From a virus (taxonomy: Duplodnaviria > Caudoviricetes): 26,508 nt of DNA. This document shows positions 1 through 24,596 of this stretch, one piece after another (position 1 is the first letter of the stretch; each line of letters opens with the position of its first letter). Below the pieces are notes generated by a model. That model worked only from the letters and a program-made list of their open reading frames with translations. It was not told where the DNA came from and did no database searches. Position numbers and translations under genes: made by a program. The stretch lies in IMG/VR virus record IMGVR_UViG_3300017722_003065, positions 1-26,508 of that record; one strand, given 5' to 3'.

Positions 1-1152
1 ATGCAATTGATGCCAGTGGCACAGAAAACAATGGGAGTGACCAACCCCAACGATCCTGATCAAAATATTCGTGCTGGAGTTCAGTTTCTTGGTCAGCAGT
101 TGACTCGCTGGAAAGATCCTGTGTTGGCTATGGCTGCTTACAACGCTGGCCCTGGCAACGTGGCAAAATATGGTGGAGTTCCACCTTTCAAACAAACACA
201 GAACTATGTGGCTGGGTACACACCTGATCCCATAAAGCCCATGCCTGCCGAAGGACCTGGTGTGCTGGACACCATAAAGAAAACCGGGTACGAATGGTTA
301 CGCAGTGCCGGAGATGCAATTGATCGTGCTGTGACTCCCAAGAATCTTGATCCTAAGACTCTGCAACCTTTGCAAGAAAAAGTGTATCCACCATACAAAG
401 GACAACCACCGGAGTCAGATCCGCGAATTGATCCCTTGCGTGATCGACTCAGCCGTGGTGAGAACCCCAAAAGCATTGAAGCAGACCTTAGAAAAAAAAT
501 AGCCGCTGATGCTGAGCGAGTTGAGTATGAACTAAGAGTTCAAAAGGCCATGCAACAACAGCTGGAAAAAGAAAAAGCCGAGCTAGAGGATAAACTAAAA
601 CAATATCCCAACGAAAAGGCCTGGCAGGAGCGATTGAAAGACGTTATAAATTACCTCACTGCTCCGCCCAAGCCATTCAAAGATGCGTTCAAGCAACCGC
701 CACCGCCAGACGTTGAGGTCTGGGATCGGCCTGTCAAAGAGCAAGACAATGAACCCACACCTCCACCGCAAGATGGTCCTAGCATACAAAAAGGTCTTAA
801 TTTTTTACGACAACTGCATGGCCTGTCAAAGATAACATCAGGTGGTGCTAGAGAAGAATTGATTGGAGCAGTGAGAGACTATGCACAGAATCAGGCACCG
901 CAAGTCTTGAAAAAATCTTTGCCGCAACCGCAAGACCCTGTGCAGGAAAATGCGTCAGGGTATATTCCCACAAAGAAACAAGCACGAGATCCTAGATATG
1001 CCATGGCGTTGACCGTGGATATCAAGCCAGGCCAGGTTGGCAAAGAAGCCAACAAGATGGCCTTGCAAACTGATTCACAGGGCCGGCCGGCACTGCTGAT
1101 GCCCAGCCTACAAAATCAACATCGTAAAGTTCAAGATAATGAATCTAGATGA
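1..1152 (+). CDS. 5'-truncated protein: soluble lytic transglycosylase (SLT-like) domain followed by Pro-rich/coiled-coil linker and a short C-terminal module
   Basis: Starts at MQLMP and contains AAYNAGPGNV..YGGVPPFKQTQNYV, typical SLT motifs. The catalytic Glu lies upstream of MQLMP in this family, so the gene begins before the window. The C-terminal segment follows a VQE site. Confidence 0.85.
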   Translation: MQLMPVAQKTMGVTNPNDPDQNIRAGVQFLGQQLTRWKDPVLAMAAYNAGPGNVAKYGGVPPFKQTQNYVAGYTPDPIKPMPAEGPGVLDTIKKTGYEWLRSAGDAIDRAVTPKNLDPKTLQPLQEKVYPPYKGQPPESDPRIDPLRDRLSRGENPKSIEADLRKKIAADAERVEYELRVQKAMQQQLEKEKAELEDKLKQYPNEKAWQERLKDVINYLTAPPKPFKDAFKQPPPPDVEVWDRPVKEQDNEPTPPPQDGPSIQKGLNFLRQLHGLSKITSGGAREELIGAVRDYAQNQAPQVLKKSLPQPQDPVQENASGYIPTKKQARDPRYAMALTVDIKPGQVGKEANKMALQTDSQGRPALLMPSLQNQHRKVQDNESR

Positions 1153-4100
1153 AATAGAAAGTTTCCCAAAGTTCAGTGCCGGCTCCACCAGTATGAATAG
1201 GCTGAGCCCGGACCCGTACGGCCGCTGGGGAGAAACTGAACAATCAGCAAACAAGAACCTTGAGAAAATAAGGAAGGCGGCCCGACAGTTGCCAGGTTCG
1301 CCGTACTTGTATACCGTCGTGCCCCAGCGATCAAATCAACGTCCTGCCTACTATATCTACGTTTTGACTCCGGATGGCGAAGTGATTGGCGGGCTTGACA
1401 TTGACGATCATGGCAAGATGTTTGAGGTTGATAAAATTCAAGTGTTGCCAAAGTATCAAGGACAAGGCCTAGGCATGTCGTTGTATGGCATAGCATTGTC
1501 TATTTTGAAAAAGCCCCTGGTAGCCGGCACAGCTCAAACTCCAGACTCTCAACGTGCCTGGCTTAGACTCAGTCAGATACCTGGTGTACAGGTCATGGGC
1601 CTGTTGCAAATGCAACGAGCTCAGGTGCCGTTCTACAAGTGGAAAGTCGAAGAGCTGGGCGCAAAACCTTGGACTAGAGTAGGCAACCATCAACTGTATC
1701 TGTTCCCAGTCACTGCTGGTAAAAAGCGAATGAAAGTCGCTCAACCCAAGGTACACAAAATTTATGGACGCGACACTGATGAACTCTACACCACAATGAT
1801 TGCATTTTACAATCAGCAGCCGGTGTTGGAGTCTGTGCAACCAACAGTTGTTCAAGAAAATCCCAGTGCTGAAATATCTCAGCACGAAAAATTAGATCGT
1901 GTGTTGATTCGGCTGTGTGAAATGCTGCAGGCTGCCGAGCATCCAAAATTTGGTATGGTTGCTGCTGCTGTGATTGACCCTGACAATTGCATTGTGGCTG
2001 CACTGAATCGCAGACTAAGCCAAGACAAAAATCTACATGCTGAACCTGCTGCTATGAGAGCCTACGAAAAACGCTACGGTACAATACCTGATGGATCTAT
2101 TATTGTCACAACTCTCAGCCCCTGTGCCGAGCCCATGGCCGAACGTCAGGGTCAGGCCTGTGTTGAGCGTATCAATCAAAGCAATGTACACAAAGTCTAT
2201 TGCGGCTACATGGATCACACACAGCATGAAGGTCTCACTGAACTGCGTGAATTCACCCTGGAAGAAACTGCCAATCCTGACATCAGACGTCTGTGCAAGA
2301 AATATGCAGATACGTTTTTAGATCCCACATACAGTATTGATATCCATGGCATTGAACAGCCTGGTCAAGTGAATAGTCTTGAAGCCTTGAGGGAAGCCAC
2401 CTTGGGCACATTGTATCCGCCCACAATTCTTGGCACACTTCAAATTGATGATATTGTGATTGCATTAAGCAAGCATCTTTATGATCGAGCAGAGGAGAGA
2501 AAAATTCCTCTTTCAAAAATAGAAAGTACGATACGAAGACTACGTCGTGTAAAGAGTAAAATGCGCCAGTATGAACCAGGGAGCAAGTTCTGGGTTTATA
2601 ATCCATATGAAGAAATTGCTCTAGGCTTTCAAGTGCTAGACAGCGGAGCATTTAAGGTGAACACTGTGATTGCTGAACCTCCGCATGCTCAAGGAGAATT
2701 ACCAATCGTTCGCATGTATGAAAACCTAACAGAATTATGGACACAGCCCTATGAACTAACTTCAAGGGTCACTGGTCCTGCCAACATGGAATACTATTTT
2801 GACACCAAAGACAATAGATCAGGTAGAATAGTTTTTGACAGTGTGCTTGACACCGATCAAGGTGGCTTACATGCTATACTGGTTATTGTGCATTTTTATA
2901 TTGATAACCTCTATCATACCAGCGGCAAAGGTGATGCTGTGGCAATATTTTCCACTGTTGTCGCTGCTTGTCGTGATTATCTGCGTAGGTACAAGCCGCC
3001 TGTGGTAGTGTTTGAAACTGATGATCCAAAGAAACGTAACTTATATGTAAAAATGGCCGGGATGTTTCCTGATTATGTGATTTATCCTTACCCACAGTGG
3101 GTGCAAGATCCCATTGTTGGTGATGAAATAGTTAATTCATTGATGGATGGCAATGCCAAAGATGCAGTGGTATTACACAGACGAAATTATGATCCAGAAA
3201 AAACTAGAATGTACATTGACGAGCAAGGTGTAGCGGGGGGTTTGGAAAACAATAGAATTAGTTTTCAGATACAAAAAGGCAAAAATAAATTTGCAACTAC
3301 TTTAAGTATTAGTAACAACCCAGTTGGAGTATACCAATATGACGCTGATACAGGTCGTAGCATAGCCGAGATTTATCCAGAATTCAAAGGCAAAGGATTA
3401 GGTAAATTGTTAGTTTTACATGCTATCTATACCGCAGCACAATTGGGATTAAATTTCCAAGAAGATGAATCAAGAACTGCCGAGTATGATAATGTGTTAG
3501 ACAGCTTGAGTAGCAACGGTTATATTGTAGATGACGATGGATATTGGTACGTAACTGGTGAGGGCGAACAATATCTACAACAATCAATGAAGCAAGGTGT
3601 GGCGGAAGGCTCTCCTAACTTTAATCGTGAATGGGACGAAGCAACCCGATATCCCGAGTTTGTTAACCTAGGTAAGGAAAAATGGATTGAACTTGTAAGC
3701 AAAGGTAAACCAGTAACAGTTACAAGAAAAAATGTTAACAAAATAAACAATACCGATGCCGCTGATCCTAAAAGTTTTAAACTACTAGACCCCGAAAAAC
3801 AAAAGCGAGCGTTGGCGCAACTTGCCAATGGCGATGTAGAAATGCCTATTGTCGCTAGATACAGCGACGGCTATTTAGAACTAATAGGCGGTAATACAAG
3901 ATTAACTGCCCAAATGGCAAAAGACGGTCAAGCTAAAGTTTGGTTATTTAATGTGCCAGAAGAATTAACGCAAGGTGTGGCGGAAGCGTTTGATCAACCT
4001 TACGCAACAGATTTAGAAAAATCCGAACATGATGATTATGATTCATTGGTACAATTGCCAGATGGTTCTCACTTGAGCATTATGTTTAATCACCAAGGTG

Positions 4101-5287
4101 ATGCCGAATATCAAGTTGAATTTTGGCGAGGGCCTAGCCAGGAAGTAACCGGTGAAGGTGATGCACAAAGAATATTTGCCACAGTTCTAAATACTATACA
4201 AAAGTTTATTAAAGAACACAATCCGTGGCGTTTGACATTTTCCGCAACCAAAGACGTTGCGCCTGGCCAAAACAGTGAAAGCCGAGCCAAATTATATAAT
4301 AGGTTAGTTGATCGCTATGCTGCTGCTTGGGGGTATGATGCTCTTATTAATGATCTTGGTGACCAAGTTGAATACGAGTTGACTAGATTAAAGCCGGGTA
4401 TAGCGGAAGGCTTGAATTTTGATGAAATCTACGGCAAGCATCTAAAAGTAACTGACAACAATGGTGATCCTCGCAAACCAGGATTTAGTCTTGTTACACC
4501 ACTCAATGGTGATTCTTGGAACTGGCGTGAGCGTCCTGAGTTTAAGGACTTAGTAAAACAAAAACTTAACGATCCAGGATTCCTTGGAGATCACAAATAT
4601 CAACAAATTATTGCCTCTATGTCAGGTAAACAATTTGATCCAACTAAACATATTGCTAAAGAAAACTTTGCTGATGGCAAGGTTAAAGGTAAAAGCCGAC
4701 CGGGTCGTGTCAAACGTGCAGGTGCAAGTTGCAACGGTTCTGTCACAGACCTACGACGCCGTGCCAAGAACGCATCAGGTGAAAAGGCCAAAATGTATCA
4801 CTGGTGTGCCAACATGAAGTCTGGTCGCAGCAAAAACAACGAGTCTCAGGCCACTGCCGCACCAATATCACCGCAGGCATGGATTGATCAAATCCATGAC
4901 ATGTATCCACAGACCTGGCAAAACAATCATGTCATGCCCATGGGCGGTGAAGGTGAAGATCAACAGTTTGCTATGTTTGAATTAGTGCCCAGTACAAGCA
5001 AAAAGAATGCTGTGGACATCAAGTGGTTCCAGGCCTATCCCTTGAGACAGGGCGTGGGCAGCCGTGCAATCAAAGAACTACAACAGCTGGCACGAGAGGC
5101 TGATATAACATTGACATTGTATCCCTGGGACAAAGGGCGAGTGAGTCAGGCCAAACTCATGAAGTTCTATCGTGGCCAAGGATTCCAGCCCACTGTCAAG
5201 GGCAGCAAGAACATGTTCTGGAGTCCGGAAAAAGCCCTGGAATCTGGTCTCATGGAGTCTTGGCAAGCGTTTCGAAATTCAAAATAA
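1139..5287 (+). CDS. 1382-aa modular polyprotein (about 10 modules: 3 GNAT-like, Zn-dependent deaminase, ParB-like, two paralogous unknown domains, basic Cys peptide); putative virion internal protein
   Basis: GNAT motif A at YQGQGLG, FKGKGLG and LRQGVG..FYRGQGF. Deaminase motifs LHAE and TLSPC..C. ParB-like PIV...LIGGNTRL. Modules are separated by x-x-E linkers (VLE, VQE, LRE, LTE, GLE, VAE twice, IAE, AKE, NNE). Confidence 0.8.
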   Translation: MNLDEIESFPKFSAGSTSMNRLSPDPYGRWGETEQSANKNLEKIRKAARQLPGSPYLYTVVPQRSNQRPAYYIYVLTPDGEVIGGLDIDDHGKMFEVDKIQVLPKYQGQGLGMSLYGIALSILKKPLVAGTAQTPDSQRAWLRLSQIPGVQVMGLLQMQRAQVPFYKWKVEELGAKPWTRVGNHQLYLFPVTAGKKRMKVAQPKVHKIYGRDTDELYTTMIAFYNQQPVLESVQPTVVQENPSAEISQHEKLDRVLIRLCEMLQAAEHPKFGMVAAAVIDPDNCIVAALNRRLSQDKNLHAEPAAMRAYEKRYGTIPDGSIIVTTLSPCAEPMAERQGQACVERINQSNVHKVYCGYMDHTQHEGLTELREFTLEETANPDIRRLCKKYADTFLDPTYSIDIHGIEQPGQVNSLEALREATLGTLYPPTILGTLQIDDIVIALSKHLYDRAEERKIPLSKIESTIRRLRRVKSKMRQYEPGSKFWVYNPYEEIALGFQVLDSGAFKVNTVIAEPPHAQGELPIVRMYENLTELWTQPYELTSRVTGPANMEYYFDTKDNRSGRIVFDSVLDTDQGGLHAILVIVHFYIDNLYHTSGKGDAVAIFSTVVAACRDYLRRYKPPVVVFETDDPKKRNLYVKMAGMFPDYVIYPYPQWVQDPIVGDEIVNSLMDGNAKDAVVLHRRNYDPEKTRMYIDEQGVAGGLENNRISFQIQKGKNKFATTLSISNNPVGVYQYDADTGRSIAEIYPEFKGKGLGKLLVLHAIYTAAQLGLNFQEDESRTAEYDNVLDSLSSNGYIVDDDGYWYVTGEGEQYLQQSMKQGVAEGSPNFNREWDEATRYPEFVNLGKEKWIELVSKGKPVTVTRKNVNKINNTDAADPKSFKLLDPEKQKRALAQLANGDVEMPIVARYSDGYLELIGGNTRLTAQMAKDGQAKVWLFNVPEELTQGVAEAFDQPYATDLEKSEHDDYDSLVQLPDGSHLSIMFNHQGDAEYQVEFWRGPSQEVTGEGDAQRIFATVLNTIQKFIKEHNPWRLTFSATKDVAPGQNSESRAKLYNRLVDRYAAAWGYDALINDLGDQVEYELTRLKPGIAEGLNFDEIYGKHLKVTDNNGDPRKPGFSLVTPLNGDSWNWRERPEFKDLVKQKLNDPGFLGDHKYQQIIASMSGKQFDPTKHIAKENFADGKVKGKSRPGRVKRAGASCNGSVTDLRRRAKNASGEKAKMYHWCANMKSGRSKNNESQATAAPISPQAWIDQIHDMYPQTWQNNHVMPMGGEGEDQQFAMFELVPSTSKKNAVDIKWFQAYPLRQGVGSRAIKELQQLAREADITLTLYPWDKGRVSQAKLMKFYRGQGFQPTVKGSKNMFWSPEKALESGLMESWQAFRNSK
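3224..4411 (+). repeat. Four dispersed in-frame ~17-nt direct repeats, consensus CAAGGTGTGGCGGAAGG (QGVAEG), at 3224, 3593, 3971 and 4394
   Basis: caaggtgtagcgggggg, caaggtgtggcggaagg, caaggtgtggcggaagc and ccgggtatagcggaagg, read directly. Related copies at 17240 (aaaggtgtggcagaagg) and 18347 (caaggtatggccgagg). Confidence 0.85.
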
Positions 5288-5311: not shown

Positions 5312-6622
5312 ATGAGACTTTTAGAATTTAAATTACTGGAATACGATCAAGCCAAAACTCTGCAGAACTTTGGCGAAAAAATGCTGGCTGCTGCAAAGAA
5401 AGATAGCACGTTGCCCGCAGACACACAAAAAGAACTGCGCAGTCCTGCAATGAGTGAGCAAAACCGCAACAACATTCTGCAGTTTTTGTTACAGCAACTG
5501 GAACAGGCCGACCCCACTCCCAACAAAAAATACACTCAGGCCATTGCCAAAATGTACGGCAATGGACAGAGCTCCATGGAAGATATTCTCAGTACTCTAG
5601 CAGATTATCTCACAAGGTTTGATCGTATGAATCGGCGCAAAAAGATTCCTGTGCCACGCAACGACTTCAATCGTTACACCAGTCTTGAAGACTTCATGGA
5701 TGTGGTAGACGAATACTATGATCCTGCCGAAGATGACGACACTGCTGGCGATGCTGAAAAGGGCAAATATCAAGAACTGTATCGTGACGCCGACTTGGTT
5801 GTGCTACAGCCCTTGGATCAAACTGCAGCCTGTTACTATGGACGAGGCACACGTTGGTGCACCGCAGCCACCAAAGGTATGAATTACTTTGACAACTATT
5901 CAAAGCGTGGACCGTTGTTTATCATCATTCCTCGCAAACCTGCTTACCCTGGCGAAAAGTATCAGTGGCAGTTTGAAAGCAGTTCGTTCATGAACGAACA
6001 AGATCGTCAGATTGGCGAAAAAGGCATGACAGAATTAGCAGCAAGATATCCGCAACTCAAGAACATACTCAAAGACTACGCAGAAAAATACACCATGGTG
6101 CCGTTGTTGACAGATGAATTTGTCAACACAATCAAAGATTATAGAGCCACTGCGCAATCACAAATGGCCAACTTCATTTCGCAGTACTCTGATCGTATTG
6201 CAGGTTTTGGACTCAAAACTCTAGAAGAATATGGCCTGGCGTTGCCGCCCCGGGTGGCTCAAGAAATTGCTGCCAACATACCTGATTATCTTGGTCAACT
6301 TGTTGACGCAATGGCAGCACCAGGTGGGTTCTGGGACAAAGTTCAAGAGCGTGTTGGCGACGAACGCAGCGAAGATCGCATTGAAACAATCCTCAGCACC
6401 GACCCCAAGATAAAGAAACTAACCGACAAGAGTACCGCAGCATTGATGCTCAAGGATGAATTAACTGGCAATGAGGCCAGCCGTGGCACATGGGACTGGC
6501 ACCAAGATTCTATAAAACATGTCACTGATTTGTTGTTGCGTGATCCAGTGTTTAGATTTATCATGAAACAAGTTCCCAAGATGTACAATAACATGCTTGC
6601 GGAGACTGGTCGTGCGGTTTAA
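5312..6622 (+). CDS. Hypothetical phage protein with CTS-like leader and a conserved-looking YG..TRWC domain (possibly PcfJ-like)
   Basis: 436-aa ORF with N-terminus MRLLEFKLLE and central AACYYGRGTRWCTAA...YFDNY...PLFII...KYQ. The family assignment is from memory and tentative. Confidence 0.7.
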   Translation: MRLLEFKLLEYDQAKTLQNFGEKMLAAAKKDSTLPADTQKELRSPAMSEQNRNNILQFLLQQLEQADPTPNKKYTQAIAKMYGNGQSSMEDILSTLADYLTRFDRMNRRKKIPVPRNDFNRYTSLEDFMDVVDEYYDPAEDDDTAGDAEKGKYQELYRDADLVVLQPLDQTAACYYGRGTRWCTAATKGMNYFDNYSKRGPLFIIIPRKPAYPGEKYQWQFESSSFMNEQDRQIGEKGMTELAARYPQLKNILKDYAEKYTMVPLLTDEFVNTIKDYRATAQSQMANFISQYSDRIAGFGLKTLEEYGLALPPRVAQEIAANIPDYLGQLVDAMAAPGGFWDKVQERVGDERSEDRIETILSTDPKIKKLTDKSTAALMLKDELTGNEASRGTWDWHQDSIKHVTDLLLRDPVFRFIMKQVPKMYNNMLAETGRAV

Positions 6623-9593
6623 CGAAATACAAGATCTTTCCAACGACGAGTTATTCGGCTATACAAATCTGGTGCGAGAGATTGCTAGATTTCTCTGGCG
6701 AGAAAATACGCCATCCAACAAGTGCATCTATCCGGAAAACATATCAAAATATCTACGGAACAACTCTCGGTTAGATAAACTCTGGCATGCTCAATCTCCA
6801 AACACGCAAGAGTTCATGGCCGATCAGATTTATGCAGCCATGTATCAAATGGAATTGGATTCATTCACGGAGTCTCAAGACAACAACAATGATGACATGT
6901 TTGGTGCGTCAATTGCCACATTGCCAAAAGTTGAATCTATTCTGGCAGCAGGCATACCACTGTACATCACCAACGTTGTAGCCAATGACAAAGACCGCCG
7001 GTGCAGAGTCAAAGAAATTCGGCACGAGGTGCGGACATTTGGGCAGATGAAACCATTTATCAGTTTTTGGCTTGATGATGCTCAAACCAGTGGCAGCATC
7101 CTGCCTTGGAATGACCGCGAATGGCAGTTGCAGCGCATTGAAGATGGGTTTGTGCTGTGGCCTCGCGATAAAAAACTACAAGAAACACACAGCGATGACG
7201 ATGACGTATTTGCTGAACGCAGTGTGAGTCAAAAGGTCATGAATTTGGTGCAAACTGGTCAGCCAGTTTACTATGCGGTTGACGTTGGCAAGCCCAGAGA
7301 TCAATGGCGCCTGCGCGAAATCATACGAGCAACTCCCACCAACTATACCTGGCTCAATCGCAGTGGCATGACCATTACTTTGGGCTATGATTCAATTCCT
7401 GTGAAATTGCAAAAACTTGACAATGGAAAAAATATACTTGTGCCATCAACACGCAACGTTGACGAAAGCGATACCAGCGACAACGAATTGTTTGGACCAC
7501 GAGCAGTGACTCGCATCAACTTACAACAGATGATAGATAATGATATACCAGTGTATCTAAGAATTAAAAGCAACGGTGAAGATGCTCAGATAACTGAGAT
7601 CAATCCGCCCATGGAAGGTTATCCAGGCTATTGGATGCGGTATCGATCTCCAACTCAGCGGGGCATGCTGGCCTGGCGTGATCGTCACTGGGCGGTTGAA
7701 TCCTACCGTGATGGAGTAATCTTACAACCACTGCCTGGAGCCCGAATGTACGAGAGCGAATCTGACCAAGACCTGTTTGGCACTGATGATCTTAGATCTA
7801 GACTGCATGCACGAATACATGCTGCATGGAAAAAAATTACATACACACTTGACGAGCTTGGCCCTGAGGCAATATTTCAAAGTGCCAAAATGTTTAGCAA
7901 CTTGTACTACAAGTGGGATGATGGCGAACACGATCCCATGGCAGTGATGGCATTCCGAGAATCCCCTGACAAAGTGTTGCAGGCTGTGGCAGAACTAGAA
8001 AAGATTGCCAAGGATCCTTACGATTATCTTGAACATCTCAGTGAAAACAACGATGACGACATGTTTAGCAGGCCCGGTCGGTTGGCCAAGGTCATAAACA
8101 CTGAACTCACTACATTGCGTGATCCCTATGTACGCACTGTTGAAATTGTGCGAGACCTAGCTAAAAACAAATTCAAAGTTAAAACAAGAGTCAGTGCAAA
8201 ATCTCCACGTGCCACACGAGGGCAGGCCACCTTTTGGTTTGGAGAATATGCAACTAAGCCCGGAGAGGATTCGCCAAAAACTCCACCGGTGGCACTGCAA
8301 ATAAAAGCAGAGCTAGAAAGTCAAGGATTTGAGTGCAAGTTCACCGACTCCGGCTGGCTCAGTGTCAAAGTTCCACCAATGTTCTCAAATGTTCTTGGTG
8401 AAGATGATGACAATGAATTGTTTGGCGGACGCAAACTCACACCCGGATATTTGAAAGAGCTGGTTAACACCACAGGACTCTGGTTGGAAATAAGCGGCGG
8501 CGAACAGTTTCGTGTGCTGGGAGTGGGACGTTTCAGCGAATTTCCCGACGAAATAGCATTTAAAATGTCAACAAGTTATGGCGAAGGTTTTACAGCATCG
8601 TATCCACCTGACATGTTGCGACTTGATCTTACTCATCAAGGAACACCAGTGTTGCACTATGGAACCCTGGCCGAAGCTTCCGACGATGATATGTTCTCCT
8701 CACAATCAAAAATTCAAACTCTCCATTTGACCCGGATCTTTCGTGCTGTGGAAGATCTTGTGACCCTGACCATTGTCAATGTCTATCCCCCCGAAGATCC
8801 TCGCGATGACACCATAAATGAACTCAACAAATTCATGACACGTCACAATGTATCCTTTAAGATTGTAGAACTGGCTCTGCAGAGAATAGCAAGTTTTGAC
8901 AGTTTTGACGAGTTCTACAATGAGATGCTGCACATATATAAACAACACTACAAAGATGAACTCGGCGAAGTCAAGGAGCCAGAATCCGATGAAGAGCTAT
9001 TCACACCTGAAAAAACGTTGATTACTCGAGGGCATGCTGTGGCCAATGTGTTGAGAAAAATAAGTTTTGATACCATGAGCGAAGTCATGAAGATTAGGCC
9101 CCAAGACATGGAGTCAATTCGTGAAAAAATATATTTGGCTACATTAAATTACGAGCGTGGAGATATACTTGAAGGTAATGCACAGATTTACACACTGACT
9201 CCTCGTGCATTTTCTTACATAACATGGAGTCTTGAGCAAGCAGGACTCAACAGCTATGCACGTCGTATCTCAGAACAAAGAGATCAGTATCAGCAGGATG
9301 ATATGTTCGCTGATCAGAGTCGACTCACGCAGAATCGTTTCATTGGTAAGATTATAATCAAGCTGGCCGAAGAAATTTACAATGATCCTTTGAGTGAGCA
9401 AAGTGACAAAGAAGATGCCAAGGATTTACAGACAGTGGGCCGAGTGTTCAGCACCCAAGGCACTCGCCAAGGGCTGACATTGATACGTCAGTGGGCTGAC
9501 AACGGAGATACTGTCATCTATGACAATGTTTTAAGTGTGATGTGGCAACATGGCATTGACATTGGTGAACTAGAACAGCAATACCAGATCTAG
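6612..9593 (+). CDS. ~993-aa polyprotein of ten ~80-120-aa modules, each headed by an acidic DD(E/D)(L/M)F tag
   Basis: The GTG at 6612 has a GGAG at 6601-6604 and gives MRFNEI, so it is preferred over the TTG at 6597. Motifs: NDELFG, NDDMFG, DDDVFA, DNELFG, DQDLFG, DDDMFS, DNELFG, DDDMFS, DEELFT, QDDMFA. Confidence 0.8.
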   Translation: MRFNEIQDLSNDELFGYTNLVREIARFLWRENTPSNKCIYPENISKYLRNNSRLDKLWHAQSPNTQEFMADQIYAAMYQMELDSFTESQDNNNDDMFGASIATLPKVESILAAGIPLYITNVVANDKDRRCRVKEIRHEVRTFGQMKPFISFWLDDAQTSGSILPWNDREWQLQRIEDGFVLWPRDKKLQETHSDDDDVFAERSVSQKVMNLVQTGQPVYYAVDVGKPRDQWRLREIIRATPTNYTWLNRSGMTITLGYDSIPVKLQKLDNGKNILVPSTRNVDESDTSDNELFGPRAVTRINLQQMIDNDIPVYLRIKSNGEDAQITEINPPMEGYPGYWMRYRSPTQRGMLAWRDRHWAVESYRDGVILQPLPGARMYESESDQDLFGTDDLRSRLHARIHAAWKKITYTLDELGPEAIFQSAKMFSNLYYKWDDGEHDPMAVMAFRESPDKVLQAVAELEKIAKDPYDYLEHLSENNDDDMFSRPGRLAKVINTELTTLRDPYVRTVEIVRDLAKNKFKVKTRVSAKSPRATRGQATFWFGEYATKPGEDSPKTPPVALQIKAELESQGFECKFTDSGWLSVKVPPMFSNVLGEDDDNELFGGRKLTPGYLKELVNTTGLWLEISGGEQFRVLGVGRFSEFPDEIAFKMSTSYGEGFTASYPPDMLRLDLTHQGTPVLHYGTLAEASDDDMFSSQSKIQTLHLTRIFRAVEDLVTLTIVNVYPPEDPRDDTINELNKFMTRHNVSFKIVELALQRIASFDSFDEFYNEMLHIYKQHYKDELGEVKEPESDEELFTPEKTLITRGHAVANVLRKISFDTMSEVMKIRPQDMESIREKIYLATLNYERGDILEGNAQIYTLTPRAFSYITWSLEQAGLNSYARRISEQRDQYQQDDMFADQSRLTQNRFIGKIIIKLAEEIYNDPLSEQSDKEDAKDLQTVGRVFSTQGTRQGLTLIRQWADNGDTVIYDNVLSVMWQHGIDIGELEQQYQI
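7464..7511 (+). repeat. 48-nt dispersed repeat, copy 1 (copy 2 at 18071-18118)
   Basis: gaaagcgataccagcgacaacgaattgtttggaccacgagcagtgact versus gaaagcaataccaatgacgacgaattgtttggaccgcgagcagtgact, 43/48 identical by manual alignment. Confidence 0.9.
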
Positions 9594-11589: not shown

Positions 11590-12342
11590 ATGATCATAAC
11601 TGACCGTGAAGGATGTTCAGGCTCTTGGCTCACCGAACTTTTGTTGTTGGGCGGACGCACTGGGCAGGCTTTTTTTCGGCAGGATCGTGCAGGTGGCAAT
11701 GTCAGCACAGATCATCTACATGGCAATGGGCATGATGATCAAAGTCTACGTGACCTACGCGATAGATGGAATGGTGAAAAAATAATTCGTTGCCACAGCA
11801 CCAACTATGCACTGCTGCGTGAGCTATGGCCCGACGAAATGATTGTGCGCATTGTGCCCAAGACATCTATACTGCAGGCCGTGGCCGCTGCCTACTACAA
11901 AACACGCACTGACACTGACCCCACTGTGGCTGCTGCATTTGATTTTATCAATCACTACTATCAGTTGTTTAAAAACGATCCCAAGCCTGTGACTGTTGAC
12001 AATTCTTGTGTGATAGACTTTGGCGTACTGTCACGTGAACGTCCGTTTGAACGGCTGTGTGAAGAACTGTTTGAACTGCCCCTGCAAGACAACCACTGGC
12101 GATTCTGGCGTGACTACTGGATGTTACAACACTATCCTGTGGATGAAGAACGCTTGGTGGTCAACATAACTCCGCTGAATCTCTACCGGGTGTTTGACCG
12201 CGAACCCACAGCGTTCAATCTGGCGTGTTTTGTTTTTGTGTACGAGCTCATGAATGATCTTCCTGAAGAATCAAGACTATGGTCAATTGACCAAGCCGCC
12301 ACCAACTTCTCCGAACTACTCAATCAAATGCAATACCGTTGA
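11590..12342 (+). CDS. Hypothetical protein, weak sulfotransferase/P-loop-like resemblance
   Basis: 250-aa ORF. N-terminal IIT.REGCSGSWL.ELL and IIRCH resemble the 5'-PAPS loop and KxH motif of sulfotransferases. The function is weakly supported. Confidence 0.55.
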   Translation: MIITDREGCSGSWLTELLLLGGRTGQAFFRQDRAGGNVSTDHLHGNGHDDQSLRDLRDRWNGEKIIRCHSTNYALLRELWPDEMIVRIVPKTSILQAVAAAYYKTRTDTDPTVAAAFDFINHYYQLFKNDPKPVTVDNSCVIDFGVLSRERPFERLCEELFELPLQDNHWRFWRDYWMLQHYPVDEERLVVNITPLNLYRVFDREPTAFNLACFVFVYELMNDLPEESRLWSIDQAATNFSELLNQMQYR

Positions 12343-13126
12343 CCAGGTCCGAGGCAATGCCTTGAGGCCCAGACTCTGTCATGCCCACGTGAAATATCTT
12401 TGTGGGCTGTATTGCCAGCTCACTGCAGACTTCAACGTGTTTGTTGCCATAGCAATTCCACCCATAGTCTCGCGGTAAGTTGTTTATGACGTAACTGCCT
12501 GCGCTGGTTTGAGCCATGTTGGCTGTGCGTTCAAAGTGATTGAACACAGTGACTGAATCCATGCTGCGTTGACGGCTCCATCGCACTCCTATGCGATTCC
12601 ACTCCATGGCATATTTGCTGAGGCTCATGGCAAAACTCTCTATGCAGGGATGCGCTAGATCAATCTCAATGTCTCGTGCTGCAGTGAACCAAGCAAAGTC
12701 AATGTGTATGGGTATGTTCTTTCGCTCACACTCACGCAACACTTCAGGCCAGTCCGGACGAAGGTCAGCCCAGCGCCAGTTAGGCAAACTCACAATCAAC
12801 GGGCGGCCTGGCGTCAGCATACCTGGCTCAGTGCCATGCTTGCCCATCAATCCATAGTAGGCATATTCCTGCGGCAAAATCTGTAGTCCTGCCCAGCCAT
12901 GCTTGAGCACCAGACTTTCAATGAAGTGTGTGCAGCCAAGTATGACATCGGTGTCAGGAAATTCATCCCAGCCCTGAAGATCATTGATACGAGTGCTGCG
13001 AAACCACTCCACTGCCTCGGGTAAAAATTCTTCCTTGGTGGTCATGTGTTGTTGCCCGGCAAACCACTGCTGGCGCAGCTTTACCAAATGTTGATCTCTC
13101 AACGGTAGTAGTTTTTTCACGCCCAT
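12320..13126 (-). CDS. PLP-dependent aminotransferase-like (fold type I) protein
   Basis: IVSLPN, PIHIDFAW (PLP Asp) and FAMSLSK (Schiff-base Lys) followed by NRIG, in the expected order. Confidence 0.7.
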   Translation of the reverse strand: MGVKKLLPLRDQHLVKLRQQWFAGQQHMTTKEEFLPEAVEWFRSTRINDLQGWDEFPDTDVILGCTHFIESLVLKHGWAGLQILPQEYAYYGLMGKHGTEPGMLTPGRPLIVSLPNWRWADLRPDWPEVLRECERKNIPIHIDFAWFTAARDIEIDLAHPCIESFAMSLSKYAMEWNRIGVRWSRQRSMDSVTVFNHFERTANMAQTSAGSYVINNLPRDYGWNCYGNKHVEVCSELAIQPTKIFHVGMTESGPQGIASDLVNGIAFD

Positions 13127-13587
13127 ACGTCATCCATGAGCCAACGGTAAAACGGTGATTCAAATGTCAGATGCCAGACTCCATTGTGTCCCAACACAGT
13201 TTCCCCGGGAACCTGACTCAGTAAGGGCTGCCCCAGTTCCTGCTGTTGTTGTGCCCAGGGTTCAGGATAGTCAGGTTCGTACCAACTGCGACTGTAAATG
13301 ATGTTTTGAATATCCACACCATCAATGGTGATCTGCTGTATTGTCAACAGTTGATCTTTTTTCATGCCATGTAAGGTACTGGGGTGATCGTGAGTTTTGT
13401 TGTAGCGTCGTATAGTCAAACTCTGTGTGTCGCCGTGTTGGAGACTGTGATGAAATCTCACGGTGGTACGACGGGTAACAAAGTTATCCCAGATCACTGT
13501 GTTGTTGATGGCGATTTCAGCCCCGGGTGGATGACTCCAATGTTGCGGATCAAGCACAATTGTAAATTCAATAGTTTCTGTTCTCAT
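13117..13587 (-). CDS. Hypothetical protein (beta-rich)
   Basis: 156-aa ORF overlapping the downstream minus-strand gene, with TAAATA 5 nt upstream on the minus strand. Confidence 0.7.
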   Translation of the reverse strand: MRTETIEFTIVLDPQHWSHPPGAEIAINNTVIWDNFVTRRTTVRFHHSLQHGDTQSLTIRRYNKTHDHPSTLHGMKKDQLLTIQQITIDGVDIQNIIYSRSWYEPDYPEPWAQQQQELGQPLLSQVPGETVLGHNGVWHLTFESPFYRWLMDDVWA

Positions 13588-13592
13588 TGATG

Positions 13593-13608
13593 TATTTAAA
13601 ATTAAATA
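13593..13608. promoter_or_regulatory. Back-to-back divergent TAAATA boxes (TATTTA-aaat-TAAATA)
   Basis: An inverted pair of hexamers fills the 25-nt gap between the divergent genes 13587(-) and 13613(+). Confidence 0.65.
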
Positions 13609-13612
13609 TCAG

Positions 13613-14203
13613 GTGAGTATAGATTCTTCCCTTGTTGAACAGGCCACTGCCTACAGCTATTGGCAATTACTGCAGTCACGCACAACTGTGATATCTGGAC
13701 TATTTCGTGTGCAGGATTTTTTGTATCCAGTGTTGCTGGACAAACTGCTGGCAAAATTACGTGAAACTCTGCCCTGGCAGCCTGAAACCACTGAGTCTGG
13801 ACTTGAAGCCTATCCCAACAGACAAAAAATAAATTGGTTACCAGATTCAGTAATTGAAGAAACGCACATGGTGTTTGCAAACATCACTGCGGCAGTCAAC
13901 AGCAAATTCTCTAGAAACAATAGATTTTTGAGTATTTCAGTGTGGCGAGATGACCCTGGGTACTGTATTGTCCCACATACCGACACTGAGTTGATAGACA
14001 TTGCCATACAAATCTATCTAGAGCCCGGACTTCCAGAATTGGGCACAGAATTTCATCTAGATTCCCACACAGTCAAGATACCCTATCAACCAAACACAGG
14101 ATATATCATGGACAATCAAGCTCAGATCTCACACAGCATGAGCACGCCAGTGCCGGAATTTCAGCGCAGACTCAGTGTGTACGCAATCTATACTGCTCAA
14201 TAA
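13613..14203 (+). CDS. 2OG-Fe(II) oxygenase superfamily protein
   Basis: HxD (PHTD), IQIYL, GTEF, distal His (ISHSM) and 2OG-binding RxS (RRLSVY). Confidence 0.8.
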   Translation: MSIDSSLVEQATAYSYWQLLQSRTTVISGLFRVQDFLYPVLLDKLLAKLRETLPWQPETTESGLEAYPNRQKINWLPDSVIEETHMVFANITAAVNSKFSRNNRFLSISVWRDDPGYCIVPHTDTELIDIAIQIYLEPGLPELGTEFHLDSHTVKIPYQPNTGYIMDNQAQISHSMSTPVPEFQRRLSVYAIYTAQ

Positions 14204-14206
14204 ATA
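14201..14206 (+). promoter_or_regulatory. Late-promoter-like TAAATA
   Basis: Overlaps the stop of the oxygenase gene and lies 4 nt before the ATG at 14211. Confidence 0.55.
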
Positions 14207-14210
14207 TAAA

Positions 14211-14507
14211 ATGGGTCGCTATTTTGTCAAAGTTGAATGTGATGTATTCTGTGATTGGCACAGTGAAAATCCACGCTACAGAGTGTTTGTGAATGACGAG
14301 TTGTTTGTTGAAAGAACTTGGATTTGGCAGCATCATTATCTGCGTGAATGTATTCAGATGCAGGTAAACCCTGGCAAATATGCCATAAAGATTGAACTGG
14401 TGGAACCTGCTCCCAATGCCACACTGACCTGGAGCAACACACAAATAACAACAGGCCCGGCCACCATCAAAAGCGGTTGGTTAATAAAGGTACATGATGA
14501 GAGCTAG
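14211..14507 (+). CDS. Hypothetical protein (98 aa, beta-rich)
   Basis: The ATG at 14211 follows TAAATA and avoids a long overlap with the upstream gene. Sequence MGRYFVKVECDV...PRYRVFVNDELFVERTW. Confidence 0.7.
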   Translation: MGRYFVKVECDVFCDWHSENPRYRVFVNDELFVERTWIWQHHYLRECIQMQVNPGKYAIKIELVEPAPNATLTWSNTQITTGPATIKSGWLIKVHDES

Positions 14508-14679
14508 AGAATTTGTGACAGAAACCACCACTGCCGGCGCAATTGCCACGGTAGATGCCCCTTTGGGCGGTGTCCAGCACAGAAATGCTGGATCGTTCTT
14601 TGGCGGTAAATATACCAATGAACCATTCGCTAATACTCCGCAATGGATGAGAAAAGGAAAACGCCGTGCTCGCAGATGA
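14497..14679 (+). CDS. Small putative virion internal protein with CTS-like leader
   Basis: MRAREFVTE-TTTAGAIATV with a basic C-terminus. AAGG lies upstream and the gene is coupled to both neighbours. The start may be 14494. Confidence 0.7.
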   Translation: MRAREFVTETTTAGAIATVDAPLGGVQHRNAGSFFGGKYTNEPFANTPQWMRKGKRRARR

Positions 14680-15109
14680 TTTAAAAGTTTTATTGGCCAG
14701 TAGTTATGCTTTTGCTGTCAAAGCGCAGTACTTTCACTGGAATGTTGAAGGTCCGGACTTTGCACAATTGCATGAGTTCTTTGAGAAGCTTTATTTAGAA
14801 GTCAACGACAATGCTGTTGATCGCACGGCTGAATTTATTCGCAGCTTGGATGAATACACCCCAGGTAGTTTTGAAAGATTCAGTGAACTAAGCATCATTG
14901 CCGGGCAGACTAAAATTCCACGTGCTCGTATCATGTTGGAAGAACTCTATACCAGCAATGCGGCAATGATTGACCTGTTGAATCAATGCTTTGAATCGGC
15001 TCAAAACGAACGTCAGGAAGGCATTGCCAATTTCATTGCTGAACGCCTAGATGCGCACGGCAAACATGGCTGGATGCTGCGCAGTTTCTTAAAGGATGCA
15101 CGAGCATGA
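14666..15109 (+). CDS. dps: Dps family ferritin-like DNA-protection protein
   Basis: FHWNVEGPDFAQLHEFFEKLY..D..AE..R and C-terminal KHGWMLRS. AAGGA lies upstream of the GTG start. Confidence 0.92.
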   Translation: MLADDLKVLLASSYAFAVKAQYFHWNVEGPDFAQLHEFFEKLYLEVNDNAVDRTAEFIRSLDEYTPGSFERFSELSIIAGQTKIPRARIMLEELYTSNAAMIDLLNQCFESAQNERQEGIANFIAERLDAHGKHGWMLRSFLKDARA

Positions 15110-16071: not shown

Positions 16072-16643
16072 GCGACGATATAAAAAATATGTTGGACAAA
16101 CTTAGGTTGCTGGAAGGCACAGTTACCTCGCCAGCATTGCCCAAGCGAGGGTTGAACAAACAACAGAAGTCAGTGCCTGAGTTGCCGGCGCTGTTCAAGC
16201 CCAAAGACATATCACCGGTGTTGGGCGGCAAGAAGGATCCACGGCACCCCACTGCAGATTACTTTGTAGGTGGTGAAAGCAAAGAAATGTCCGAGGATCT
16301 GTTGAGCAATGTGCGTCGCACTTTAGATGATTACCTGCAAGACATTGAACAAAAATTAGAAAAACAAAAAGATCGTGATTTAATCAGCAAAGCCGGACAA
16401 GACATACAGAAAGATCCACTGCGTGATTTATTACCAGTTAAAACCATTGCCACCGACGATGGCAAAGACATGCGCATACATGGCAATGAGGATGATGGGT
16501 TTGTTATTCGTATTCGTGATCGGCCAATGAAGGCTCGATTCCGCACACTTGATGAAGCAGAAATGGCCTGTGAACTTTTTGCAGCACATCGTCGTAATCG
16601 CAACATGGAAGCTCAAGCACAAGACTACGTGGAAGAATCATGA
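16068..16643 (+). CDS. Hypothetical protein, putative virion internal protein
   Basis: ATGA overlap at 16068-16071. Leader MSDDIKNMLDKLRLLE. Confidence 0.7.
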   Translation: MSDDIKNMLDKLRLLEGTVTSPALPKRGLNKQQKSVPELPALFKPKDISPVLGGKKDPRHPTADYFVGGESKEMSEDLLSNVRRTLDDYLQDIEQKLEKQKDRDLISKAGQDIQKDPLRDLLPVKTIATDDGKDMRIHGNEDDGFVIRIRDRPMKARFRTLDEAEMACELFAAHRRNRNMEAQAQDYVEES

Positions 16644-19078
16644 AAATCAATGACTTTAAAACTGCAAAGAAGCCTCGCGTCAAAGAAGCCATTGATCCTG
16701 AGTTTGCTGCCAAAAAACGTGGCATGGGATACTTTGATTACAGCACGTTGAAGCGCGAAGACTTCAACGATGACGACTGGTATGTATGGGATCCAGAGCA
16801 ACAACAGTTCGTGGCCAGCTACGGTGCCCGGAGTTCGACTGCCTTGGATTTTAGAATGCGAGAAAATTTCGGTGGCACATATAAAATGCCCGATGGCAGA
16901 ATAGCCATGCGCGGAATGCGGGCTAAATTTATGCCCGGCATTGAAAGCCGAAATAACGACAATCTTGACGAAGCCGCCAAGACTCTGCAGATGATCGAGG
17001 GCTGGGAAGAATTCAAAGAAACTGCTCCGGCATTGAAAGAAGTTCGCCGCCGTCGCCAAACCAACGAGAGTATAGAAGAAGCCACAGGTGATCCAAAGTT
17101 TGACAAGATGCTCAAAGGTATCACAGGTAAAAGACAAGTAGCCAAACAACAAAAAGCAGATACCAAACAACAGGCACGTGATGCTTTTGGTAGTATGTTT
17201 GGTGGAGGTAATCCTGCTGATAAGCTCAGCATCAGAAACAAAGGTGTGGCAGAAGGCAAGAAAAAGAGAAAGAAAAAATCTTCAAGGGCATTGAGCAGAT
17301 ATTTCTTCCCAGGCTACGGCTATTATGGCGGCGGTGAATCTGGTGAGGGTGGCGGCGAAGGCGGTGGTGAAAGCATCAACCCACGCCAGGCAGAAGATTC
17401 TGATCTAGATGAAAATCTAAGAAATTGGTTCAAAGAAAAGTGGGTGAGATTTGGCCCTGATGGCAAGATTCGCGGCGACTGTGCCAGAGGCAGTGAATCC
17501 GAAGGCAAGCCTAAATGTTTACCACAGTCCAAAGCACATGCTCTGGGCAAAAAAGGCCGTGCATCGGCTGCAGCCCGCAAGCGCAGAGAAGATCCCAACG
17601 CCAATCGTACAGGTGCTGCAATAAATGTTGCCACCAAAAAGAAAACCAACGAAGTTCAACTTGACGAGAAATGCTGGGATACCTACAAACAGGTGGGCAT
17701 GAAGAAAAAAGGCAGTCGCATGGTTCCCAACTGTGTGCCAAAAGAAAGCCAAGAAAAAACACAGCAGTGTCCTGAGTGTGGTGGTTCAATGTATCCAGAC
17801 ACAATGCTAAATGAAAAGAAAGATGCCTGTTACTACAAAGTAAAAGCATCGGCCAAGGTATGGCCCAGTGCTTATGCATCAGGACGTCTAGTACAGTGTC
17901 GCAAACGCGGTGCTGCCAACTATGGCAAGAAAAATGAAAGTGTAGCAGAAGACACGCTGGATGAAAAGTGGAGTAAGAAATACAAAAGCAGCATTGACTG
18001 CAACAACCCCAAAGGATTTAGTCAACGAGCACATTGTGCTGGCCGTCGGAAAAATGAAGATGTTACGGAAGAAAGCAATACCAATGACGACGAATTGTTT
18101 GGACCGCGAGCAGTGACTGGTACATTATTAGATAGACAGGCTCTAAACGTTGCCAAAAAACTGACTACAGATAAGAACCTGGCAAAGTTAAATAATATGG
18201 CCAATGATAGCACCATTTATCGTGCGTTAGAACGTTATTTTTCTAAAAACAATATTTCCACAAGAATCTTTAATCGTGTCGCTGCTATTGTGTTTAAAAA
18301 ACTGGACAAGTATGGTCGTAGATTATCCACTGACCCAAGAATACAACAAGGTATGGCCGAGGATGACAAAGACAATGCCACAACAGCCAAGAAGCCCGGC
18401 TTTATAGACAACGTCAAACAAGGGGCCGAAGACTACAAAGATCTCTGGATGATGGGCGCAACTGGTCGCACACCTGAACGTTGGAAAAACTCAGCTGAAA
18501 AAGCAGCCGAGCGCGGATCCGCACCAGGTCCACAGTTTCCTTTGAAAGAAGGTCGTATGAAGGAAATTGCCATTGAATTTCAAGACTACAAACATCTACC
18601 TGACATGGCTTTTCAAAGCCGATACAAAATCAGCAAACGTGACTGGTGGAACAAGCACGCCAAACTGGTACAGGGATCAGGCCTAGGCATTGGCATGGAC
18701 GAAGCCCGTGGCAAAGTCAAAGCCAAGATTGTTTATCCCCGGCCCACTAGAGCTGAACGTGAACACGACCGTATTCGCAAAGAACGAGGGTTGCCCAATC
18801 CCAGCCACTACAAAACACTGGGCGATAAACTGGATAAAGAGCTTGCAGCCTTGCGCGGTGATGATGTCACCGAGGCTCACGTTGATGCTGATGAACTGGT
18901 TGATGTCTATATCAAAGGGCAACACAAAGGCCGCAGTATTAGAATCCCAGTGGCAAAAAACTTTCCCAACAAACACGTTGATTTACTGACACAGCGTCTC
19001 AAATCCCGTGGCATAAACCCGCATGCCATTGTGTATGGGCCAACCACAAGAAAAGTTGCCGAAGACACTGATCAATGA
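16640..19078 (+). CDS. 812-aa polyprotein of short, mostly basic modules separated by x-x-E sites; putative virion internal protein
   Basis: More than 15 sites such as VKE, LDE (four times), IEE, VAE (three times), LNE, MAE, LKE, MDE and VTE. Several K/R-rich two-Cys modules. Contains both GVAEG and DDELFG linkers. Confidence 0.8.
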   Translation: MKINDFKTAKKPRVKEAIDPEFAAKKRGMGYFDYSTLKREDFNDDDWYVWDPEQQQFVASYGARSSTALDFRMRENFGGTYKMPDGRIAMRGMRAKFMPGIESRNNDNLDEAAKTLQMIEGWEEFKETAPALKEVRRRRQTNESIEEATGDPKFDKMLKGITGKRQVAKQQKADTKQQARDAFGSMFGGGNPADKLSIRNKGVAEGKKKRKKKSSRALSRYFFPGYGYYGGGESGEGGGEGGGESINPRQAEDSDLDENLRNWFKEKWVRFGPDGKIRGDCARGSESEGKPKCLPQSKAHALGKKGRASAAARKRREDPNANRTGAAINVATKKKTNEVQLDEKCWDTYKQVGMKKKGSRMVPNCVPKESQEKTQQCPECGGSMYPDTMLNEKKDACYYKVKASAKVWPSAYASGRLVQCRKRGAANYGKKNESVAEDTLDEKWSKKYKSSIDCNNPKGFSQRAHCAGRRKNEDVTEESNTNDDELFGPRAVTGTLLDRQALNVAKKLTTDKNLAKLNNMANDSTIYRALERYFSKNNISTRIFNRVAAIVFKKLDKYGRRLSTDPRIQQGMAEDDKDNATTAKKPGFIDNVKQGAEDYKDLWMMGATGRTPERWKNSAEKAAERGSAPGPQFPLKEGRMKEIAIEFQDYKHLPDMAFQSRYKISKRDWWNKHAKLVQGSGLGIGMDEARGKVKAKIVYPRPTRAEREHDRIRKERGLPNPSHYKTLGDKLDKELAALRGDDVTEAHVDADELVDVYIKGQHKGRSIRIPVAKNFPNKHVDLLTQRLKSRGINPHAIVYGPTTRKVAEDTDQ
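18071..18118 (+). repeat. 48-nt dispersed repeat, copy 2 (copy 1 at 7464-7511)
   Basis: Encodes ESNTNDDELFGPRAVT versus ESDTSDNELFGPRAVT. The flanks are unrelated. Confidence 0.9.
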
Positions 19079-23873: not shown

Positions 23874-24596
23874 ATGAAAGATCATTTACTTGATTTAGTG
23901 GAACACACCCATGACCTTGGATGCATTGCTTTGATCAAGATCACGGGCACTGACAAAGAAACAACTATCGTAGGCTGTGCTGAAAAACGAGAGGCAGTGC
24001 TGCAAGCGCGATATCATACACCAGTGGCAGAGTTCATTGGTACATTTGGTATGCCTAACTTGGGGAAGTTAAAAATTCTTTTAAACTTGCCTGAGTACAA
24101 AGAAAATGCAAAAATTACCTTGACAAAAGATCAGGCCGGTGCCACAGATGGCTTGCTGTTTGAAAACACAGCCGGGGATTTTCACAACAACTTTAGATTC
24201 ATGTCAGCAGAAATTGTCAACGGAATTCTCAAGGACATGAAGTTCAACGAACCCACATGGCATGTGGAATTCGAGCCCAGTGTCGCTGGTATCCAAAAAC
24301 TCAAGATGCAGGCACAGGCCAATGCCGAAGAAACATTGTTTAATGCCAAGACAGAAAACGGTGATTTAAAGTTCTTCTTTGGTGATCATTCAACACATGC
24401 TGGTAACTTTGTGTTTCATCCTGGCGTGTCAGGTCAAATCAAACGCCCATGGGCATGGCCAGTCAAAGAAGTAATTTCAATAATGAACTTAACTGGAGAC
24501 AAGACTATGCGTATCAGTGATGATGGTGCTGCTGATATTAGAGTTGACTCTGGCATTGCTGTTTATCGTTACATTATACCTGCACAAACAAAATGA
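23874..24596 (+). CDS. Probable DNA polymerase sliding clamp (gp45/PCNA-like)
   Basis: 240 aa with a two-fold alternating helix/strand pattern ending in ..IRVDSGIAVYRYIIPA, near PolB. GGAG SD. Function is inferred from size, pattern and context only. Confidence 0.55.
   Translation: MKDHLLDLVEHTHDLGCIALIKITGTDKETTIVGCAEKREAVLQARYHTPVAEFIGTFGMPNLGKLKILLNLPEYKENAKITLTKDQAGATDGLLFENTAGDFHNNFRFMSAEIVNGILKDMKFNEPTWHVEFEPSVAGIQKLKMQAQANAEETLFNAKTENGDLKFFFGDHSTHAGNFVFHPGVSGQIKRPWAWPVKEVISIMNLTGDKTMRISDDGAADIRVDSGIAVYRYIIPAQTK

Follow-up and report, generated by a model that had tools for sequence, protein, structure and literature searches.

The stretch analysed here, hereafter the window, is a 26.5-kb virus record (IMGVR_UViG_3300017722_003065; 26,508 nt) present in 23 freshwater/lake sequencing runs. 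An open reading frame (ORF) of 1382 aa at 1139-5287 is divided into modules by four in-frame copies of the short repeat CAAGGTGTGGCGGAAG (QGVAEG), of which two are perfect and two worn, and worn or mismatched copies recur in a second polyprotein gene at 16640-19078. This repeat, termed the joint, and the exchange of modules around it are the subject of this analysis. The features concerned are as follows:

1139-5287, plus strand: 1382-aa multi-module ORF, predicted head-cargo polyprotein (Pfam GNAT, deaminase, DUF6934)
1139-1822, plus strand: N-terminal leader (M-N-L-D-E-I-E) and GNAT acetyltransferase module (PF00583, E 4.9e-5)
1859-2389, plus strand: Zn-dependent cytidine/dCMP-type deaminase module (PF00383, E 5.6e-11)
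2723-3223, plus strand: DUF6934-like module with IDE end and low GC at third codon positions (GC3) (E 0.0013, under cut-off)
3224-3241, plus strand: joint 1, worn (3 mismatches; QGVAGG, Glu lost)
3242-3592, plus strand: module M1, 117 aa, weak GNAT and winged-helix similarity (under cut-off)
3593-3610, plus strand: joint 2, perfect (QGVAEG)
3611-3970, plus strand: module M2, 120 aa, predicted ParB/sulfiredoxin-like fold (model predicted local distance difference test, pLDDT, 85)
3971-3988, plus strand: joint 3, perfect core (QGVAEA)
3989-4393, plus strand: module M3, 135 aa, DUF6934-like, predicted GNAT-related fold (E 1.6e-4, under cut-off)
4394-4411, plus strand: joint 4, worn (4 mismatches; PGIAEG)
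4412-4654, plus strand: module M4, 81 aa (4 related loci)
4655-4840, plus strand: non-repeat Glu boundary, then conserved basic E-NFADGK module, a frequent module landing site
4844-5284, plus strand: C-terminal GNAT-like module (weak, E 0.047; relatives L253-L259)
17240-17257, plus strand: joint copy KGVAEG (2 mismatches) in the second polyprotein gene
17936-17953, plus strand: worn joint ESVAED in the second polyprotein gene
18347-18364, plus strand: worn joint QGMAED in the second polyprotein gene

The four copies begin at 3224, 3593, 3971 and 4394, with spacings of 369, 378 and 423 nt, and all share the frame of the ORF at 1139-5287, as stated in an original prediction made from the sequence alone. 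The 16 nt it had found identical between the copies at 3593 and 3971 are confirmed and become 17 with the preceding G, and the copies it placed in the second gene at 17240 and 18347 were recovered, to which we add the worn copy at 17936. With up to three mismatches, the 16-mer matched the window five times (3224, 3593, 3971, 17240 and 18347) against 0.19 expected, and 0 of 100 shuffled windows reached five matches; the copy at 4394 has four mismatches. Under the codon usage of the window, the probability of this spelling of QGVAE is 0.004, mainly because GCG makes up 7% of Ala codons. Contigs from independent runs span the joints without differences, and this bridging rules out an assembly artefact or chimera as the origin of the arrangement in the window.

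Modules M1-M4 have a GC content of 0.38 and a GC3 of 0.28, compared with GC3 of 0.46 and 0.50 at the gene ends and 0.44 in eight other genes (Fisher p ~1e-10 versus the modules). The modules are AT-rich as originally described, but low GC3 is already present from ~800 nt upstream (2402-3223, the ~820 nt ahead of the first copy; GC3 0.33, p = 0.18 versus the modules), and the AT-rich tract and the repeats thus do not have the same limits. Low GC is a mark of recently acquired cargo generally, and not of the repeat-bounded part alone.

The family B polymerase of the window has Sinorhizobium phage Phosso as its closest cultured relative (50% identity) and is 42-44% identical to those of 349-384-kb Vibrio, Yersinia, Erwinia, Serratia and Escherichia phages, which we take to be the Rak2/GAP32 group. 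The window belongs to a T4/Rak2-related freshwater jumbo phage. Polymerases from 19 uncultured related records (210-525 kb) are 61-80% identical to that of the window. A search of cultured phages with the polyprotein gene matched only module M3 (14 Vibrio phage records), and the joint region gave three matches there, all at chance level.

An exact scan for the repeat yielded 131 loci from 6 of the 64 parts of IMG/VR (~1400 stretches estimated overall), and nearly all contexts listed, of 164 distinct, read QGVAE in long frames. As a guard against circularity, the three four-fold wobble sites were left free in the search; 57 of the 131 distinct matches then shared one of the 64 possible spellings, the others being mostly short or GC-rich unrelated frames. 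When loci were collected through protein similarity alone (216 loci), this spelling was used by 78 of 125 GVAE peptides against 0.0045 expected, and an unrelated GVAE in the sliding-clamp gene was spelled with common codons. DNA matches with three or fewer mismatches in the same 216 loci were in frame in 182 cases, out of frame in 6 and antisense in none (reversed-pattern control: 5 in frame). The Lys codon ahead of the repeat was AAG in 43/54 cases, compared with a background of 27%, an excess showing that the consensus tapers off across the codon before it. The 15-mer was present in 17 of the 19 large related records (84 copies versus 1 for the control) and in 12 of the 14 found by protein. 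The repeat word was single-copy in 120/120 loci of cellular genomes, where ~570 are estimated against 278 by uniform chance, a frequency close to the chance level. These results support a DNA conservation that far exceeds the peptide constraint, bearing out the synonymous-site conservation that had been anticipated.

Breakpoints were compared across 484 loci and the window, using gapped scoring and ORFs below 53% GC that hold the repeat, with identical contexts collapsed before pairing in all classes. When pairs shared the upstream module, the downstream module was unrelated in 220 of 227 at the repeat; generic [LIVMF]xE sites gave 109 of 556, and sampled control pairs 2021 of 14639. Allowing one vote per family (closest relative), the counts were 47/50 for the repeat, 18/108 for generic xxE sites and 288/3337 for the control, placing the breakpoints at the repeat as had been predicted. 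Of pairs with at least 95% upstream identity, 32/35 still differed downstream. Adjacent copies were separated by a multiple of three with an open frame in 219 of 234 cases, at a median spacing of 294 nt. Rearranged arrays were also found, namely a reordered, shorter M3-M1-NFADG array in L356 and L266 and a direct junction of M1 to the NFADG module in L357; together with the spacings, these uphold the proposal that modules are gained, lost and swapped in frame.

Module M1 is widely shared (44 related loci) with differing neighbours. None of the distinct homologue contexts of M1-M4 (32, 7, 62 and 3, respectively), inspected by eye, had the repeat-joined neighbour seen in the window, and only the Glu boundary following M4 recurred amongst them. 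In the second polyprotein gene, L261 has the module upstream of joint 17240 in common with the window and a different one downstream, and L057 carries ~65 extra residues at the site matching joint 17936. By these comparisons, modules have very likely been exchanged at the joint. The original linkage of module to repeat holds in that breakpoints fall at the repeat, but not in full: modules also sit between, and move at, non-repeat Glu junctions, so the repeat is the dominant joint, neither required nor the sole one. The ENFADG start of the conserved basic module (window 4655-4840) is a second joint, two copies of which flank M1 in L377, L380 and L383.

The core of the joint comprises 15 nt (+1 to +15) with sharp edges. 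In swapped pairs, minor bases at +3 to +15 were common to neither neighbour class (0-0.15), those at and ahead of position 0 followed the upstream module (0.79 at 0, but only 0.26 at -1) and those from +16 onward followed the downstream module. Wobble identity within the core remained at 0.75-0.88 while synonymous identity in the flanks spanned 0.44-0.95 (random site pairs 0.77). As core identity is independent of flank divergence, the core travels with neither module and is reset to one consensus time and again. Across 177 sites matched by DNA only, 13 of the 16 positions changed 11-34 times, mostly through transitions, with QDVAE, QSVAE and QGVTE as amino-acid variants; two bases never changed in the 177, T in the hydrophobic codon and A in the Glu codon, and the G of the Glu codon changed 3 times (binomial p 1e-4 to 1e-7, with independence assumed). 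By this pattern, the joint is not a frozen binding site. Three mismatches were present in 4/6 unswapped compared with 21/151 swapped sites (p = 0.006), consistent with wear at unswapped joints. In L401 and L402 an extra module is bounded by a ~35-nt duplication, with switch points at partial matches of 4-6 nt to the left half of the repeat; insertion and later deletion fit this arrangement equally.

No tyrosine recombinase (PF00589) was found in the 19 related records, in the nine of these at least 90% complete or in the window. Large serine recombinase (PF07508) and ERF were each found in 0/19 related records, Y1 transposase (PF01797) in 0/19 over cut-off (two sub-cut-off rows, E 0.017 and 0.031), and resolvase (PF00239), IS110 (PF01548) and reverse transcriptase (PF00078) in 0/5 related genomes each. 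RecA/UvsX was present in 15/19 related records. A dedicated recombinase is quite likely absent. No hairpin was found when 81-nt stretches around the four joints were folded as DNA (plus strand; z -0.2 to -1.06), and the joint site has no dyad symmetry.

In runs of 2017, 2020 and 2025, contigs cross the joints with zero differences; the pieces listed bridge joint 3593 in 6/8 runs, 3971 in 7/8 and 4394 in 4/8, one run possibly being the source of the window. No repeat-to-repeat deletion joints were present among those listed for the eight runs holding the phage, in contigs, which drop rare variants. Joints from 3611 to 3251 were listed in three runs, as contigs only and with side lengths absent, and are equally explained by M1 of other phages. 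The read joints 3596-4661 (X18) and 3610-4766 (X16) have 21 letters on the short side and were left uncounted; the former spells a form found in L352, another phage. Diverged copies of M1 and M4, each following a perfect repeat and next to other modules, occur in the same runs; donors are thus present within the same community. Exchange takes place on an evolutionary time scale and is not phase variation. An internal start at the GTG was considered separately and set aside by eye, there being no spacing to an upstream ribosome site.

A head protease of family S77 was identified in 14/19 related records and 8/9 near-complete ones, outside the 26.5-kb fragment, and record G001 has a T4-like head operon in which the scaffold-like proteins and the capsid N-terminus are rich in xxE motifs. 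Published passages describe cleavage by gp21 after L/I-X-E (PMC9026906) and cleavage of Alt at ITE-6 and LTE-619 (PMC5694885). Hydrophobic-x-Glu alone is invariant at the joint, which fits a T4-type head protease. The N-termini of 82/114 repeat-bearing ORFs fit a loose leader pattern, a count with no control set. ORFs of the window start with MRAKEFITE, MMRAREFVTE and MDINEIIAE, and such xxE leaders point to a possible cargo island lying upstream of the DNA polymerase. The protease site of the original prediction therefore stands as a hydrophobic-x-Glu motif kept by selection; the cut itself we infer, and consider likely. Short xxE-ending leaders resembling the T4 capsid targeting sequence were also noted in the ORFs at 5312, 10898, 14494, 16640 and 19319. 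A second linker, approximately xxE-(S/N)-x-D-D/E-L/M-F, occurs eight times in the 998-aa ORF at 6597-9593 and a single time in each of two other genes, at 9648 and 18086; its codons vary freely, as in a peptide-level module leader and unlike QGVAEG, and the segments 7461-7511 and 18068-18118 are 88% identical.

On balance, we consider it probable that the joint is a self-reinforcing stretch of short homology used by general phage recombination, and a predicted head-protease site, rather than an integron. A module flanked by the common spelling would have the largest number of possible recombination partners, and a 15-nt match would tolerate few mismatches; consensus copies would spread and worn copies freeze, so that a single spelling would persist with no dedicated enzyme to maintain it. 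Modules would be inserted, deleted or swapped by crossover at the joints, either in co-infected cells or through excised circles, driven perhaps by a UvsX/RecA-type engine or by replication-linked template switching, and selection for an open frame and for hydrophobic-x-Glu would filter the products. The polyprotein would enter the prohead through its T4-like N-terminal leader, where the S77 protease may cut after the Glu of Val-Ala-Glu and free each module as a separate capsid protein, and the acetyltransferase-like, deaminase and ParB-like pieces would then be delivered at infection.

Several observations weigh against this account. The loci are related, and pair counts and p-values overstate independence; the worn-joint comparison rests on six unswapped sites, and no true orthologue of the whole 1382-aa gene was found in viral contigs. 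Most M3 homologues start after ordinary xxE sites without the repeat, and M1 lies between non-repeat sites in L365-L374. At joint 1 the Glu is lost, the copy being preceded by IDE, and P3 at the joint is Val or Met, outside the T4 L/I-X-E and SPN3US A-X-E motifs. The recombinase searches begin with a loose first look that is blind to novel families. Passages of Arbiol et al. (PMC2839356) give the patches needed by T4 recombination as <50 bp, compared with the 15-nt joint. Cut, packaging and recombination are all predicted events.

If instead an unrecognised sequence-specific recombinase or nicking protein, of phage or host, bound the 15-nt core and moved modules as circles, the sharp-edged core decoupled from both neighbours would be expected, as would one spelling across phages with 61-80% identical polymerases, swaps that outpace point mutation (the 32/35 pairs that differ downstream at ≥95% upstream identity) and the 3611-to-3251 joints listed in three runs. 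The last are equally explained by other phages with M1 behind a perfect repeat, however, and only the hydrophobic-x-Glu bases of the supposed site are invariant, its wobble Gs being the most variable. The joint also has neither dyad symmetry nor a hairpin, the families searched were negative (PF00589, PF07508 and PF01797, 0/19 over cut-off; PF00239, PF01548 and PF00078, 0/5), switch points vary in L402 and runs from 2017 to 2025 show the same array. We regard this explanation as unlikely. Equally improbable is its extension, an intragenic cassette system in which a novel recombination factor acts on a 15-nt site co-opted as a head-protease cut site; if true, such a system would fuse any captured domain in frame, to be packaged and released as a free effector.

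Less likely still is that the linker is a protease site only, at which illegitimate recombination survives because it falls at domain boundaries, with the spelling a founder effect. Modules do move at generic xxE junctions, M1 is bracketed by duplicated ENFADG in L377 and L380, and the second gene along has a linker whose codons are free, recognisable at the peptide level. Homology breaks at generic xxE sites in 18/108 families compared with 47/50 at the repeat, however, and a founder spelling should decay with its module, whereas core identity does not track module divergence; Gly, Ala and Gln vary freely (QDVAE, QSVAE, QGVTE), and the peptide thus does not explain the DNA. This explanation appears largely refuted already. 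G-quadruplex-driven pilin variation and Chi are precedents for recombination started by a signal, and the rare codons GTG-GCG do make GG pairs in copies that all lie on the coding strand. It is nonetheless very unlikely that the joint is a DNA or RNA signal of this kind, whether a two-tier G-quadruplex (four GG pairs), a Chi-like word or a host repeat, that starts recombination or affects translation: no core positions vary more than the Gs of the GG pairs (34 and 32/177), the fourth pair is present in only 110/177, Chi-like words are near Markov expectation in 229 kb of related genomes, and the repeat word in cellular loci is single-copy (120/120).

As regards the remaining modules, structure models suggest that M2 and M3 fold as self-contained domains. 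Foldseek searches with the M2 model returned ParB/Noc/Srx as top rows (best E 0.015, weak), alongside an Atlas lead to PF02195 on 18% of one cluster, whilst M3 matched PHROGs 16075/6387 and its model (pLDDT 87) returned acetyltransferase rows from E 0.001 (weak). The M1 and M2 sequences gave nothing informative against solved structures, and the M4 family search reached a best score of 0.88, below the reliable range, and gave no family. The C-terminal query had 592 relatives. The N-terminal GNAT module (1139-1822) had zero relatives in viral contigs, and the module at 2723-3223 matched only L605 there, which is as long as the window, identical over the match and hence not independent. Within that module, seven substitutions at 2824-2868 are common to all four compared runs versus the window; this patch may have been introduced by recombination, or the record of the window may be in error there.

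Elsewhere in the window, a Dps/ferritin-like gene lies within the cargo island (14666-15109; PF00210, E 3e-20), which is interrupted at 11590-14507 by ORFs that appear by eye to be sulfotransferase-like, PLP-enzyme-like and oxygenase-like; two ORFs of this block are on the opposite strand, and three were scanned without a Pfam match. The 509-aa ORF at 24593-26122 had no Pfam or PHROG match and presumably resembles tRNA-guanine transglycosylase-type DNA modification enzymes; the ORF after it (26290-26508) is truncated at the window end. Four of the 19 related records (G010, G013, G014 and G017) have a second repeat group ~2-5 kb ahead of the RecA/UvsX gene. Record G011 (525 kb) has repeat pairs at C1:176505-176900 and 524058-524453, both with 381-nt spacing; it carries two polymerase genes, and a chimeric or duplicated assembly is possible.

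If the account favoured above is correct, a single short sequence would direct the sites of domain exchange and likely free the domains as proteins, acting as a plug-in standard for virion-loaded proteins. It would represent a clear, quantifiable case of the long-proposed 'linker' mode of modular phage evolution, intragenic and coupled to virion loading. The joint is also a search key: ORFs split at this site give a catalogue of small candidates for anti-host or anti-defence roles, probably injected, from an abundant uncultured phage family. Two propositions become testable: that frequency-dependent recombination can by itself maintain a 15-nt standard, and that a T4-type protease acts on internal polyprotein sites. 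No description of such an in-frame DNA joint was found in the open literature, with subscription journals and supplements outside that scope; the present work adds a core that travels with neither neighbour, a decay pattern by which selection on the peptide can be told apart from resetting of the DNA, and an array stable over eight years.

By their defining features, the joint is not an integron, promoter early stem-loop (PeSL), shufflon or MuF system. The likeness to MuF and polymorphic toxins originally drawn is not upheld, as there is no MuF match and the variation is internal rather than C-terminal. Unlike in a shufflon, all copies are direct on the coding strand and no Rci-type tyrosine recombinase was found (PF00589, 0/19). 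Integrons comprise IntI, attI/attC sites and arrays of gene cassettes. The locus shares with them an array of unrelated, AT-rich, exchangeable units parted by a repeated site, but it has no tyrosine recombinase and no folded attC-like site, its order is stable in the population, and its units are domains that lack a start and stop of their own (219/234 adjacent copies in one frame). The integron-like system first proposed is thus not borne out, with no recombinase of the families searched over cut-off, no hairpin and no deletion joints listed for the eight runs.

Passages of Arbiol et al. (2010; PMC2839356) describe PeSL cassettes of RB49 and phi1 together with the 'linker' model of Botstein. 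As in those phages, short repeats mark the borders of insertion, deletion and replacement, there in hyperplastic regions, and the same passages name no dedicated recombinase and propose general phage recombination. The PeSL differs in being an intergenic promoter and stem-loop that moves whole ORFs, for which mini-circles have been shown, whereas here a 15-nt coding joint without a hairpin lies inside one ORF and domains are moved in frame. The T4 internal proteins IPI-III and Alt, as covered in parts of PMC9026906 and PMC5694885, also have variable cargo, Glu-ending cut motifs and short N-terminal xxE leaders (ITE in both Alt and window ORF 10898), with an S77 protease in the family. Each of those T4 proteins, by contrast, is encoded by its own small gene and has a single propeptide; here many modules lie in one chain with internal sites, P3 is Val and the DNA of the site is itself the swap point. 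Polyvalent proteins, virion-delivered polypeptides in the account of Iyer et al. (2017, PMC5512222; 2021, PMC7824862), similarly combine disparate domains (GNAT, ParB-like) in one chain with predicted cutting. An MPTase peptidase is embedded in them, and the text covered describes no conserved DNA joint, whilst Pfam scans of the 1382-aa ORF and its 10 segments, which did not include those authors' LPD/MPTase profiles, found no peptidase. In sum, by analogy the joint would work like PeSL-mediated shuffling combined with the T4 internal-protein route, and its product would resemble polyvalent proteins.

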